Positions 29,660 through 43,195 of a stretch of 64,000 bases of DNA are shown here, piece by piece; positions within the stretch are counted from its first letter, which is position 1; every line of letters starts with the position of its first letter. This DNA is from an uncultured Actinomycetota bacterium (GTDB lineage Bacteria > Actinomycetota > Actinomycetes > JACCUZ01): positions 800,377 to 864,376 of the forward strand of contig CAVVAH010000008.1 in NCBI GenBank assembly GCA_963746175.1. Direction: 5' to 3'. The notes under the pieces are model-generated. The model had not been told where the DNA came from. It was given only the letters and a program-made list of their open reading frames with translations, and did not search any database. The position numbers and the translations under genes were made by a program.

Positions 29660-29790
29660 CGTCCGCATCGTGGAATCGAGGAAAGTGGCCCCGCTGCGGG
29701 TGCGGATTCCGGGTCCCTGGCGGGGCCACTTGGCCGAGTCCCAGACTGCGCCCACGATGCGGACGGCGAGCAACCCTCGTCCTTCCTGGC
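29660..29790 (+). repeat. intergenic hairpin-plus-tail repeat element, copy A of the aagtggccccgc subfamily
   Basis: gaaagtggccccgctg ... ggcggggccactt ... gatgcggacggcgagcaaccctcgtccttcc. Aligns with the copies at 34750 and 43086. Confidence 0.6.
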
Positions 29791-29883
29791 CGCCTTTGAC
29801 CTGAGGGATCCTTCCGGCACTTCCGCCGCCGACGACAACGGACGCGAGCGCGAGCCACCCAGCCCATGACCTAGGTTGCGCGG

Positions 29884-30855
29884 ATGGTCGAGACCGCGCT
29901 GCCCGTCGCCGTCTCGGAACCGGACCGGCAGCGCAACCCCGCGCGCGGCTACGTCTACCTGGTGGTGGCGGCCGCTCTGTTCGCCCTCAACGGCACCGTG
30001 TCGAAGGTGATCCTCGCCAGCGGCATGACGGCGATGCGGCTCACCGAGCTGCGCTGCGCCGGCGCGGCCCTCGGCCTCGGGCTGGTCCTGCTCGTCGTCG
30101 CGCCCGGCAGGCTGCGGGTCTCCCGGTCCGAGCTCCCGCTGCTGGCGGCGTACGGCGTGGCAGGGGTGGCGCTGACCCAGTGCTTCTACTTCGTCGCCAT
30201 CGCACGGATGCCGGTGAGCATCGCGCTGCTGCTGGAGTACACCGCCGTCCTCATGGTCGCGTTGTGGGCGCGGTTCGTCATGCACCAGCCGGTCCGGAAC
30301 CGGGTCTGGGCCGCCCTCGCCCTGTCCCTCACCGGGCTGGCCTTCGTCGCGGAGATCTGGACCGGAGGTGGCCTGGACGGCTTCGGTGTGGCCGCTGCGC
30401 TCGGCGCCGCGGTCGCGCTGGCCGCCTACTACCTGCTCGGCGAGCACAGCGCGAACCACCGTGACCCCCTGTCGACGACGTTCTGGGCGTTCGTGTTCGC
30501 CACGTTGCTGTGGTCGGTCGTCCAGCCCTGGTGGGACTTCCCGGTCGACGCGACGAAGGGCAGCGCGTCGCTGCTCGGCAACCTCGACGACCGGACCCTC
30601 CCGGTCTGGGTGCTCATGACGTCGATGGTGGTGCTGGGCACGATCGTGCCGTTCGTGCTCGTGCTGTCGGGGCTTCACCACCTGCCGGCGACACGGGTCG
30701 GGATGGTGGGCATGCTGGAGCCGGTGCTCGCCGGTGTCATCGCGTGGGCCTGGCTGGCCGAGGCGCTCAGCCCGCTGCAGCTGGTCGGTGCCGTGGTCGT
30801 GCTGGTGGGCATCGTGCTCGCCCAGACGGCGCGCGCCGACCCGCCGCCGGCCTGA
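29884..30855 (+). CDS. EamA/DMT superfamily transporter
   Basis: Ten TM helices, two EamA repeats. Confidence 0.7.
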   Translation: MVETALPVAVSEPDRQRNPARGYVYLVVAAALFALNGTVSKVILASGMTAMRLTELRCAGAALGLGLVLLVVAPGRLRVSRSELPLLAAYGVAGVALTQCFYFVAIARMPVSIALLLEYTAVLMVALWARFVMHQPVRNRVWAALALSLTGLAFVAEIWTGGGLDGFGVAAALGAAVALAAYYLLGEHSANHRDPLSTTFWAFVFATLLWSVVQPWWDFPVDATKGSASLLGNLDDRTLPVWVLMTSMVVLGTIVPFVLVLSGLHHLPATRVGMVGMLEPVLAGVIAWAWLAEALSPLQLVGAVVVLVGIVLAQTARADPPPA

Positions 30856-30857
30856 CG

Positions 30858-42200: not shown

Positions 42201-42831
42201 CCCACAGCTCGATGCGCAGCGGGTGCTCCTCGGTCGGCGGGAACACGTCGACGATCCCGCCGCGCACGGCGAACTCGCCGCGCCGCTCGACCAGGTCCAC
42301 CCGGGTGTACGCCGCCGCCGCCAGCCGCTCGGTCAGCTCGTCGAGGTCGATCTCGTCGCCGGCGTGCAGCTCGACCGGCACCAGCTCGCCGAGACCGGCG
42401 ACCATCGGCTGCAGGACTGCCCTCACCGGGGCGACGACGACCTGCACCGGGCCGTGCTCGGCGTCCTCGCTGTCCGGGTGGGCCAGCCGGCGGAGCACGG
42501 CGAGCCGTCGGCCGACGGTGTCGCTGCGGGGGCTCAGCCGCTCGTGCGGGAGGGTCTCCCACGACGGGAACTCGACGACGGTCTCCGGGTCGAGCAGGTC
42601 GCGCAGGGCGCCGGCCAGGTCCTCGGCCTCGCGGCCGGTGGCCGTCACCGCGAGCACCGGCCGCCCGGCCCGGGCGGCGAGCGCCGCCAGCACGAACGGC
42701 CGGACGCCGGGCGGTGCCGTGAGGTCGAGCGACGTGTGCGCGCCGGAGCGGGCGGCGGCGACCGCCGTGCGCAGCGCGGGGTCGCCGGCAGGCTCGTCGA
42801 GCAGGACGTCGAGGAGTCCGGTGAGGCTCAC
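39250..42831 (-). CDS. mfd: transcription-repair coupling factor Mfd
   Basis: About 1190 aa, intact. DVGYGKTE Walker A, helicase motifs, TRG motif. GTG start at VSLTGLLDVL. Confidence 0.9.
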   Translation of the reverse strand: MSLTGLLDVLLDEPAGDPALRTAVAAARSGAHTSLDLTAPPGVRPFVLAALAARAGRPVLAVTATGREAEDLAGALRDLLDPETVVEFPSWETLPHERLSPRSDTVGRRLAVLRRLAHPDSEDAEHGPVQVVVAPVRAVLQPMVAGLGELVPVELHAGDEIDLDELTERLAAAAYTRVDLVERRGEFAVRGGIVDVFPPTEEHPLRIELWGDSVEEVRWFKVADQRSLEVAEHGLWAPPCRELLLTDAVRERAAELSVTFPGLADVLDKLAEGIAVDGMESLAPVLVDDMVLLLDQLPAGTHVVLQDPERVRTRAHDLFATSEEFLEASWASAAAGAATPLDLGAAAYRSLADVRARAIQLGVPWWSLSPFAADEAAEDEETSVVAARAVEGYRGDTARAVADLKGWLGDGYRAVLLTEGHGSAQRIVEVLGQEDVAARLDDTLDAVPEAGIVHVSCGRLARGFVSDELRLVVLTETDLMGQAGPSTKSMRRMPSRRRNQVDPLSLQAGDYVVHEQHGVGRYVEMTQRTVQGATREYLLIEYAPSKRGQPGDRLFVPSDQLDQVTRYVGGEAPSLHRLGGADWQKAKGRARKAVKEIAAELIRLYAARTSAPGFAFSPDTPWQRELEDAFPYHETPDQLGAIDEVKEDMEKPVPMDRIICGDVGYGKTEIAVRAAFKAVQDGKQVAVLVPTTLLVNQHLSTFEERYASFPVKVAALSRFQSDKQADAVKAGLLDGTVDVVIGTHRILSSEVQFKDLGLVVVDEEQRFGVEHKEQLKHLRTNVDVLTMSATPIPRTLEMAVTGIREMSTILTPPEERHPVLTFVGAYDEKQIGAAVRRELLREGQVFYIHNRVESIDRAAARIRQLVPEARVATAHGQMNEHALEQVVLDFWEKRSDVLVCTTIVESGLDISNANTLILERADVMGLSQLHQLRGRVGRSRERAYAYLLYPPEKPLTEMAHDRLATMAAHSDLGAGMWIAMKDLEIRGAGNLLGGEQSGHIAAVGFDLYVRLVGEAVAEFKGEGFEELRDVKVELPIDAHLPHDFLPGERLRLEAYRKLAAIGSEEDLEAVRAELVDRYGDLPTPVENLLAVARFRTLARRAGLSEVALAGNSIRFAPVELPESAQLRLQRLYPGSLVKHAVRSILVPKPMTARVGGQPLRGVALLDWCREVVEAVLPPPATAAPASAAAEGPR

Positions 42832-43085
42832 GGGTGTCGGTCTCCCAGGAGGTCGGAACAGCACAGCAGCCCCGATCCGCAGAGCGGCCGGGGGTCGCTC
42901 CCAGCGTACGTCGGCCCGGGGACAGCGCTCGACCTGCGAGTGAGTCCGTCTCCCGTCGTCGCCGGTGCGGGTCAGAGCGGCCAGGACGACGGGGGCAGGC
43001 GGGTGGCTGCTCGCCGCCCGCGGCTCGGCCGCCGTGCAGGCCTTGCCCGGAGCGGATCCCGTGATGCGGTCGGATGTGGCCCGCC

Positions 43086-43195
43086 TGCTGGTCAAGAGCG
43101 AAGTGGCCCCGCTCCCGTCGTGCATTCCACGACTCCAGCGGGGCCACTTCGCTCTGCCCGCGACGGTGGCTCGGCATGCGGACGGCGAGCAGCCC
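43086..43195 (+). repeat. intergenic hairpin-plus-tail repeat element, copy C, in the mfd/ppc divergent region
   Basis: gagcgaagtggccccgct-N23-agcggggccacttcgctc (18-bp perfect stem), then ggctcggcatgcggacggcgagcagccctcctccc. Confidence 0.65.

Follow-up and report, generated by a model that had tools for sequence, protein, structure and literature searches.

A candidate mosaic palindromic repeat family, resembling MITEs and REP/BIME elements, in intergenic spacers of an uncultured actinobacterium

MITEs (miniature inverted-repeat transposable elements) are usually shorter than 200 bp and reach up to ~400 bp, carry no transposase gene, and possess terminal inverted repeats along with a target-site duplication; their ends resemble those of the full-length insertion sequence that supplies the transposase (PMC3184786). 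MITEs with inverted repeats as long as the element itself include ERIC/IRU of ~127 bp, Correia of ~104-157 bp, and Nezha of ~130-170 bp (Delihas 2011, PMC3184786). REP (repetitive extragenic palindromic) sequences have a length of ~20-40 nt, consist of a conserved 5' GT[A/G]G followed by an imperfect palindrome, and exist in more than 100 extragenic copies per genome (PMC2817692). In bacterial interspersed mosaic elements (BIMEs) they form clusters of alternating orientation with other motifs, and the gene of the REP-associated tyrosine transposase (RAYT) stands between two inverted units (Nunvar et al. 2010, PMC2817692). Here, we describe a family of nested palindromes in 64 kb of DNA from an uncultured Actinomycetota bacterium (contig CAVVAH010000008.1, positions 800,377 to 864,376), the whole of which is referred to as the window. 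The family is rather probably a lineage-specific, non-autonomous, mosaic palindromic repeat of the MITE/BIME kind whose copies are old insertions in intergenic spacers.

Two further kinds of hairpin are relevant for comparison. Bacterial stem-loop sequence families, reportedly described by Petrillo et al. in 2006 and Cozzuto et al. in 2008, are said to be repeated intergenic sequences that fold as stable stem-loops. The I-shaped (U-tract-less) intrinsic terminators of high-GC actinobacteria are GC-rich hairpins without a T-run that stand behind stop codons.

Architecture of the nested palindromes

The window has a G+C content of 72%, and its genes were placed by codon-position GC and Pfam. Sites are labelled A to E after the elements, L-numbers denote contigs or loci of related genomes used for comparison, and none of the features below is assigned a strand. 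Elements A, C, and D are nested palindromes of about 266-310 nt, in which a core hairpin stands between inverted arms of 80-100 nt. An earlier note on this DNA had described the copies as hairpins followed by a conserved tail. However, the reverse complement of the tail is found upstream of the hairpin (29657-68 with 29757-68 as an exact reverse complement; 22065-75 with 22182-91), and a third inverted repeat, GGTCAGAGCGGCCAGGAC / GTCCTGGCCGCTCTGAC, lies outside this pair. Hence, the real units are nested palindromes of 270-310 nt, whose outer inverted arms the note had missed together with another hairpin family, H4. Because the elements are palindromic, its statement that all copies lie on the + strand loses its meaning: only the right arms had been noticed, the core scores about equally on both strands (in element C, 77.5 vs 76.2 bits with the covariance model described below), and only B and C are demonstrably co-oriented, their right halves being identical over 28 nt.

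An arm profile, built after aligning the half-elements outwards from the core, gives the order of motifs as the core, a spacer of 5-70 nt, GCGGACGGCG (M2), 15-45 nt that are often CCTCC-rich, M3 (GGCCGCTCTGACC(CGCACC)), and M4 (CGACGGCGGG(T/A)CAG). The profile detects arms solely beside cores; they appear as inverted pairs at A, C, and D in the window and on both sides of the core in L127 and L125. Upon folding 220-290 nt around A, D, and C, one long nested hairpin is obtained for each (z = -4.6, -7.4, and -9.1, respectively; -110.9 kcal/mol for the DNA fold of C). A terminal mini-hairpin of M3/M4 at the arm tips is clear in L018 and L127 only and is no consistent feature. A small open reading frame (ORF) in the tail (ATG CGG ACG GCG ...) was considered and rejected, as neither its frame nor its stop is conserved among the copies.

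Two kinds of core are found, namely H1, a 59-nt unit, in A, B, and C, and H2, of ~75 nt, in D and E. Element A (29576-29841) occupies the spacer between a GNAT gene (stop 29536) and an EamA gene (start 29884), with arm-profile matches at 29669-29576(-) and 29756-29841(+) (E ~9e-9). Its H1 core hairpin (29678-29736) has 12-bp arms at 29683-94 and 29720-31 around an interior of 25 nt, scores 65.8 bits (+) and 54.2 bits (-), and has an RNA fold of -39.6 kcal/mol (z = -4.4). The left M2, CGCCGTCCGCAT (29657-29668), is paired in the fold with the right M2, ATGCGGACGGCG (29757-29768), the tail of the earlier description, and the left M3, GGTCAGAGCGGC (29620-29631), has its partner GGCCGCCTTTGACC at 29788-29801. 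Element C (42944-43253) lies in the divergent spacer between mfd (start 42831, -) and ppc (start ~43315, +), with arm-profile matches at 43024-42944(-) and 43175-43253(+). Its H1 core (43096-43154) is the canonical GAGCGAAGTGGCCCCGC-N25-GCGGGGCCACTTCGCTC with a perfect stem of 19 bp and an RNA fold of -48.1 kcal/mol (z = -11.2). The left M3, GGTCAGAGCGGCCAGGAC (42970-42987), pairs with GGTCTGACCCGCACC at 43208-43222 within 29-nt arms that are 83% complementary, and the M4 ends are at 42951-61 and 43225-43.

Element D (21963-22261) lies in the convergent gap of PNPOx (stop 21962) and BaxI (stop 22330), between the PNPOx stop and the BaxI terminator hairpin (22281-22308), and its arm-profile matches are at 22060-21979(-) and 22180-22259(+). 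The H2 core hairpin (22078-22153) has the form TGATCGTTTGCGAC-N48-GTCGCAAACGATCA with an inner stem CGGACACGCCG/CGGCGTGTCGG and an RNA fold of -52.9 kcal/mol (z = -6.7). Outside the M2 pair given above, the right M3, TCCTGGCCGCTCTGAC (22216-22231), has its left partner at 22005-22021, and the M4 ends are at 21982-96 and 22241-60. As the earlier note had seen, D bears the same GCGGACGGCG...CCTCCC stretch. Element B (34727-34870) is a partial copy in the spacer between eno (start 34648, -) and the DUF885 gene (stop 34913, -). It comprises a degenerate left M2 (34733-43), an H1 core (34746-34804; ~62-63 bits on either strand), a right M2 (34828-37), a CCTCC tract (34848-56), and a degenerate M3 (34857-70), and its fold is unexceptional (z = -1.65) because its left half is degenerate. 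Element E (1992-2061) is a solitary H2 core without arms or any arm-profile match, which begins 14 nt past the stop codon of a gene ending at 1978 and is followed 660 nt on by an MFS gene. Its right half is near-identical to D over ~33 nt, and its RNA fold has z = -4.5; the extension of E to 2200 that had been proposed is unsupported, since only the hairpin belongs to the family.

The H4 family is represented by two hairpins. The one at 14216-14274, in a convergent gap, has a perfect stem of 23 bp, GGTACGGAGCTGCATGATCACCG / CGGTGATCATGCAGCTCCGTACC (RNA fold z = -10.8), and the other, GCTGGATGATCACC ... GGTGATCATGCAGC at 29547-29588, abuts the left end of element A. Their common motif GCTGCATGATCACC has five matches in the window, four of which are inside these two hairpins (0.32 expected). 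The window thus holds three H1, two H2, and two H4 hairpins. All copies are extragenic, as they stand in non-coding spacers and show no coding signal by codon-position GC; these spacers are convergent, tandem, and divergent-promoter spacers alike, and the genes on either side are housekeeping genes of unrelated kinds that share no theme.

Both the hairpins and the tail that the copies have in common are genuine and greatly exceed chance expectation. For example, GCGGGGCCACTT and its complement occur exactly five times, at 29683-94(-), 29720-31(+), 34788-99(+), 43101-12(-), and 43138-49(+), which are the stem arms of A, B, and C; with up to one mismatch there are six matches against 0.65 expected, a number reached in no shuffle. 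Likewise, ATGCGGACGGCG has seven matches in the window (1.9 expected), the third inverted pair GGTCAGAGCGGCCAGGAC/GTCCTGGCCGCTCTGAC has four (0.2 expected), including those at 42970 and 22215(-), and over 102 nt B is 75% identical to C. Several details of the first description are amended by these comparisons. The perfect GC-rich stem ascribed to three copies holds for A (12 bp) and C (19 bp), and in B the left arm is degenerate (GAGCGGCCCCGC); the small inner hairpin exists, in an interval of 25 nt between the 12-mers instead of a loop of ~22 nt. The stem is followed by 'ttcgctc' in B and C and by 'ttggccg' in A. ATGCGGACGGCG is exact in A and C and one base off in B, near-identical as had been said, although it is no tail, having a 5' partner upstream. 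The second palindrome, GATCGTTTGCGAC/GTCGCAAACGATC, is exact in D (22079-91 and 22140-52), whereas in E only the right arm at 2049-61 is exact and the left one is degenerate; GTCGCAAACGATC itself is exact at 2049, 22079(-), and 22140.

The H1 core could be studied in 23 units drawn from the window, the metagenome-assembled genomes (MAGs) MFD02581.bin.1.161 and La3_metabat2.260, and six Joint Genome Institute (JGI) metagenome contigs. H1 is palindromic through its centre; the 12-mers are separated by 25 nt in all 23 units, the half-site spacing is 17-25-17, and in the gapless alignment of 59 columns the stem columns are invariant or nearly so. The interior is an imperfect palindrome about a 5-nt apex (S-W-W-W-S). 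Its 7-bp inner stem shows many double-sided changes, with 4-12 sequences per pair in columns 22-26, and its covariation score of 0.188 compares with 0.129 in shuffled alignments, is reached in 0 of 500 shuffles, and stands against slid controls of <=0.10. Two compensatory changes are seen in the outer stem of one L018 unit (AAGTGGACCGGC/GCCGGTCCACTT), and in the orthologous pair L005/L130 the interior seems to be inverted with respect to the stems. With a covariance model derived from the 23-unit alignment, family members receive 43-77 bits, in comparison to <=40 bits for generic actinobacterial GTGGCCCCGC hairpins, and each member scores about equally on both strands. The mismatches in the core stems, examined for an asymmetry that would betray a transcribed strand, show none (G.T-type to A.C-type, 35:35). 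The equal strand scores and the balanced mismatches imply symmetry at the DNA level, from which no transcribed strand can be inferred. As RNA, the hairpins have predicted folds of -36 to -53 kcal/mol.

The same architecture is present at unrelated loci elsewhere in the lineage, which include L018 and L127 behind cysS, as well as L125, L063, L024, L130, and L154. Cores are also found solitary or in short tandem runs, with three units in L122, two each in L063 and L018, and two plus two in L126. In L126 (619-2037), two H1 units stand on each side of a 342-aa ORF (-) with a faint match to AbiEi_4 (E = 0.078), whose C-terminus presumably resembles DUF559/Vsr-type nucleases, as judged by eye. Its neighbours are an acyl-CoA dehydrogenase gene and what we take to be purK (assigned by eye), and the ORF might be a mobile gene cassette bounded by hairpins. 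In L024 (2381-2511), an 18-nt tandem array of ACCAACGGCGGGAGAGCG (7.2 copies, 88% match) lies directly against a family element at its outer end, CGACGGCGGGTCAGCGACC; the array unit resembles this end motif, and the array lies upstream of a gene starting at ~2555.

Orthologous spacers and distribution of the family

Orthologous loci of conserved synteny were reached via homologues of DUF885 and BaxI; the DUF885 protein of the window has 74% identity to a protein of a 'Sporichthyaceae bacterium'. Site D provides filled and empty states among relatives. Its spacer is 367 nt in the window and 318 nt in a 95%-identical relative (L154), against 64 nt in an 86%-identical relative (L155). The L155 spacer consists of the BaxI terminator hairpin, 15 nt, and the PNPOx stop, whereas the window and L154 have an arm-core-arm element placed exactly in the gap from the BaxI terminator region to the PNPOx stop codon. 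Between the window and L154, the coding flanks are 97% identical, the terminal arm 87%, and the interior only 40-55%, a pattern better read as fast divergence than as a swap of the core, which was the reading tried and set aside.

At site A, the EamA-GNAT spacer measures 347 nt in the window, as against 29 nt in L119, 63 nt in L121, and 35 nt in each of L120, L124, and L155. In L122 (MAG MFD02581.bin.1.161) it is 356 nt long, yet it holds a 94-aa ORF (16984-17268) with no Pfam match, and the element is absent. This short spacer is one that has been struck by different insertions in different lineages. At site C, the flanks ...GATCCGAGAC and GACGTACGCTGGG... are ~330 nt apart in the window, 10 nt in L121, and 38 nt in L120, and the whole orthologous spacer is 112-149 nt in two species, without the element. 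At this hypervariable spot, the ppc-mfd spacer of L119 (2560-2720) holds ~170 nt with an unrelated palindrome, the 19-bp arms of which are ATCGACCACGTATGGCAGG / CCTGCCATACGTGGTCGAT; other families of palindromic inserts seem to be resident in sister lineages. At site B, the window shares H1 with L122, which has three units, and L123, which has one, and no H1 core is seen in L119, L120, L121, and L124; the flanks can be aligned with those of the orthologous copy at 79% over 117 nt (L122/L076). Three observations stand together: near-identical modules are dispersed to unrelated spacers, orthologous sites differ by insertion-sized lengths, and palindromy is held at the DNA level with constraint on the stem sequence and the interior length.

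The family has been found in few related genomes. No H1 core and no arm occurs in ~108 kb from five sister species, and exactly patterned H1 units were met in only six contigs of the JGI metagenome collection. A scan of genome contigs for GTGGCCCCGC-N15-35-GCGGGGCCAC, a generic pattern that mostly brought up unrelated terminators among the matches listed, returned at least two MAGs with family members among those matches. The viral-contig collection gave 0 H1 matches, and its 23 matches to the 16-mer GCGGGTCAGAGCGGCC were dismissed as chance, having no flanking similarity. A BLAST search of plasmids with C and D returned nothing related. The motif strings of the family were not found in the literature searched, in which nothing specific on REP, RAYT, or MITE in actinobacteria was found either.

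Nature of the family and alternative explanations

The first description had suggested a MITE/REP-like family, and this is borne out by copies that are multiple, extragenic, and palindromic, are absent from the orthologous spacers of sister species, and occur in few related genomes only. The family works like the MITE and REP/BIME families and is classed as a member of neither. Like MITEs, the elements are small (<~400 bp; full copies 266-310 nt), gene-free, intergenic, and multi-copy, carry terminal inverted repeats around a core (arms flank A, C, D, L127, and L125 on either side), are predicted to form a long stem-loop if transcribed, often stand behind genes, and have filled and empty sites in related genomes (A, C, and D). 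Unlike MITEs, they have no detectable target-site duplication and no insertion sequence with matching ends is known for the family; the core, H1 or H2, is a hairpin that is repeated in its own right and is also found without arms, the host is an uncultured actinobacterium, and the copies are old and diverged. With REP, BIME, and REPIN (REP doublet) elements they share extragenic palindromic units conserved in sequence with compensatory changes (as in L018), mosaic clusters that include other conserved motifs, units arranged in tandem or inverted, lengths that vary between relatives, the co-residence of several families in a genome, and the want of a target-site duplication. However, the unit is 59-75 nt and not 20-40 nt, GTGG lies inside the long stem in place of a 5' GT[A/G]G with a self-contained palindrome, and each H1 arm of 12-17 nt is not itself palindromic. 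The alternation of orientation typical of REP/BIME cannot be scored for H1, which is a palindrome; what is observed is tandem runs and inverted flanking arms. The family also falls in the same generic class as the stem-loop sequence families, being repeated, intergenic, and able to form stable stem-loops. With I-shaped terminators the family has in common the GC-rich hairpin, the missing T-run, the place behind stop codons, and a 10-bp stem, GTGGCCCCGC, that is common in such actinobacterial hairpins; it differs from them in its fixed 59-nt design, its shared flanking arms, its location between divergent genes, and its absence from orthologous spacers that retain small terminators of their own.

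The family is probably an ordinary kind of bacterial repeat, of the junk or structural type, and very probably not a family of small RNA (sRNA) genes. The elements would have been inserted into intergenic spacers at the DNA level, and later decay and partial deletion would have left B as a partial copy and E as a lone core. The conserved arms and stems and the invariant 25-nt interior of H1 may reflect recognition in trans by an enzyme, either a transposase or a hairpin-binding protein, that is presumably encoded elsewhere in the genome, and the palindromy may also be maintained by intrastrand templated repair. Transcription from either side would yield very stable hairpins, so that surviving copies behind genes may serve as orientation-independent transcript barriers or 3'-end stabilisers; the elements have possibly been exapted as bidirectional RNA hairpins. 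A terminator would serve no purpose between the divergent promoters that flank copy C, which counts for the repeat reading. A bolder form of this reading, to which we give a slim chance, is that H1, H2, H4, and the arms are what an undescribed system of mobilisation, one that recognises hairpins, has left behind in Actinomycetota, REPIN/RAYT-like or with another HUH-type single-copy enzyme. In such a system, small hairpin modules would nest into the centres of larger palindromes and recognition would be held by the invariant 17-25-17 geometry; nesting would explain why arm-core-arm elements differ in their core, A and C having H1 and D having H2.

Several points weigh against the insertion of a mobile repeat. 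No convincing target-site duplication is present at the junctions of D (L155), C (L121, L120), or A (L119-L121); CCGGG is seen to either side of C, yet at a distance of 20-40 nt beyond the inverted repeats, and a short duplication may possibly have decayed with age. Certain copies are common to orthologous positions across species, namely B with L122/L123, L018 with L127 behind cysS, and L005 with L130. These copies are clearly old and vertically inherited, and they also fit a conserved function with differential loss. The species tree is star-like, with DUF885 identities of 80-85%, because of which gain cannot be polarised against loss. The copies are ~75-80% identical to one another and hence too old to demonstrate recent mobility. 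No transposase domain was found by Pfam among the 20 window proteins and nine neighbours of related copies, and neither a cognate transposase nor a full-length insertion sequence with matching ends was found in these 64 kb, the part of this genome to which the copy counts also refer.

Conservation by selection instead of transposition would be expected if the palindromes were sites for a lineage-specific dimeric or hairpin-binding DNA protein, be it a nucleoid organiser, a gyrase/IHF-like factor, or the regulator of a regulon whose operators they form. The nearly invariant H1 stems around an interior that drifts and even inverts, the half-site spacing fixed in every unit, and the copies kept at orthologous positions across species agree with this, and REP/BIME elements are known to bind integration host factor (IHF), gyrase, and DNA polymerase I (Pol I) (PMC2817692). 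Yet the flanking housekeeping genes share no theme, the sites are missing from the same spacers of sister species, and identical 59-nt units at unrelated loci would still require a mechanism of dispersal. As an explanation by itself we consider it unlikely; a protein-binding role is compatible with the repeat reading and does not exclude it. Another possibility is that the elements are REPIN-like and moved by a single-copy RAYT-type (HUH/Y1) transposase, which would be true REP/BIME biology in an actinobacterium. Hairpins conserved in sequence, no target-site duplication, inverted paired modules with tandem clusters (the runs of L122, L063, L018, and L126), and the co-residence of H1, H2, and H4 are in line with it, several hairpin families being likewise co-resident in Pseudomonas and Stenotrophomonas (PMC2817692). 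This we regard as improbable, since the unit is not a REP of 20-40 nt in which 5' GT[A/G]G precedes its own palindrome, no RAYT is seen within the 64 kb of this genome, and no literature naming REPIN, RAYT, and Actinobacteria together was found.

Two readings at the RNA level fare worse. The earlier note had raised a family of structured sRNAs whose CCUCCUCC-like tail could act as an anti-Shine-Dalgarno sequence. In a fuller form, the elements would be structured sRNAs or cis-regulatory RNAs expressed from the + strand, with the tail sequestering ribosome-binding sites. The hairpins would indeed be very stable as RNA, the inner stem of H1 covaries, and the ends of A and C lie ~80 nt upstream of the start codons of EamA and ppc. 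Nevertheless, this is very unlikely: the CCTCC tract occurs in either arm, reads GGAGG on the + strand in left arms (for example in L018, L127, and L122), and is base-paired within the outer stem; strand scores and mismatches (G.U-type vs A.C-type in RNA terms) show no asymmetry; copies sit in convergent, tandem, and divergent contexts alike; and the corresponding EamA and ppc genes of sister species lack the elements upstream. A check against the Rfam covariance models, in which a tRNA was the only match above gathering, placed nothing over the elements even at E<=5. Ordinary factor-independent terminators, alike simply because GC-rich hairpins are common in high-GC actinobacteria, would account for the 10-nt stem GTGGCCCCGC/GCGGGGCCAC, which together with its loop recurs as what looks like a terminator across many genomes of Streptomyces, Nocardia, Arthrobacter, and others among the matches listed. 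Most family copies also stand behind stop codons, and the window has unique terminator-type hairpins besides. The generic hairpins, however, stay below the bit scores of family members, whose common design comprises 17-nt arms, an interior of 25 nt, and flanking arms of 80-100 nt; no T-run comes after the stems, which give way to CTTCGCTC or TTGGCCG, copy C is located between the divergent mfd and ppc, and the spacers are 200-300 nt longer than in relatives whose own small terminators remain. The shared flanking arms and the comparison of filled and empty sites largely refute this reading, which we hold to be extremely improbable, and the earlier statement that terminators alone do not explain the elements is upheld by the arms, the absent T-run, and the position of C.

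Significance and neighbouring observations

REP/MITE-type repeats are poorly documented in Actinomycetota, and the family extends a known class by an increment and introduces no new principle. The rigid 59-nt hairpin with conserved 80-100 nt arms is a defined substrate for finding the enzyme that spreads it, and the family permits the testing of hairpins as U-tract-less bidirectional terminators in high-GC bacteria. As markers of presence/absence and length, the elements could separate close populations of this uncultured soil actinobacterial lineage. In annotation, gene callers run through these elements, and long-read assemblies are likely to break or misjoin there. For example, an open frame of 1683 codons in the window (39250-44298, -) leads from mfd through element C into ppc antisense, and in a sister assembly mfd is called as 1409 aa, compared with 1183-1193 aa in relatives (~1190). 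The over-extension of mfd is an annotation artefact, because the open frame crosses element C.

The window is nearly identical (99.2-99.9%) to L001, the European Nucleotide Archive (ENA) soil-metagenome contig ERZ25039511 contig_23914. The frame of ppc (43315-46066, +) breaks near 44170-44290, with an extra C at 44186 relative to L001, in which PEPcase is intact at 916 aa. The break looks like a long-read assembly error rather than a pseudogene, as the window has many single-base indels against L001. Just upstream of ppc, at 43257-43298, there is a 22-nt direct repeat, GTCTCGGATCGCGGGCCGCGGC (1.9 copies, 95% match); the CGCGATCCGAGAC motif of this upstream region is duplicated and conserved in several sister species, and the repeat may be an operator or leader of ppc. 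Likewise, a 17-nt block at 34684-34700 (CCGCCGGTAGCCTGAGG on the - strand), ~40-50 nt upstream of the eno start, is kept in six of six species with or without the hairpin element and may be the -10 region of the eno promoter (TAGCCT) or a leader.

Relative to L001, 800 nt at 27393-28192, inside a Pyr_redox_2/NDH-2-like gene (27346-28743, -), have no counterpart, and only a 162-aa NDH2_C fragment is called there; the difference is either a population deletion variant or a misassembly. A repeated unit of 1775 bp at 54-58 kb, which was looked at as a transposase candidate, belongs to three tandem paralogues of a glycoside hydrolase family 16 (GH16) glucanase that share it (53393-57839). Within the repeats, a 300-nt stretch is 100% identical (54363-54662 vs 56138-56437), and internal tandem repeats of 15-48 nt lie at 55108-55396. 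The array reflects recent duplication or gene conversion, and the region may be sensitive to assembly.

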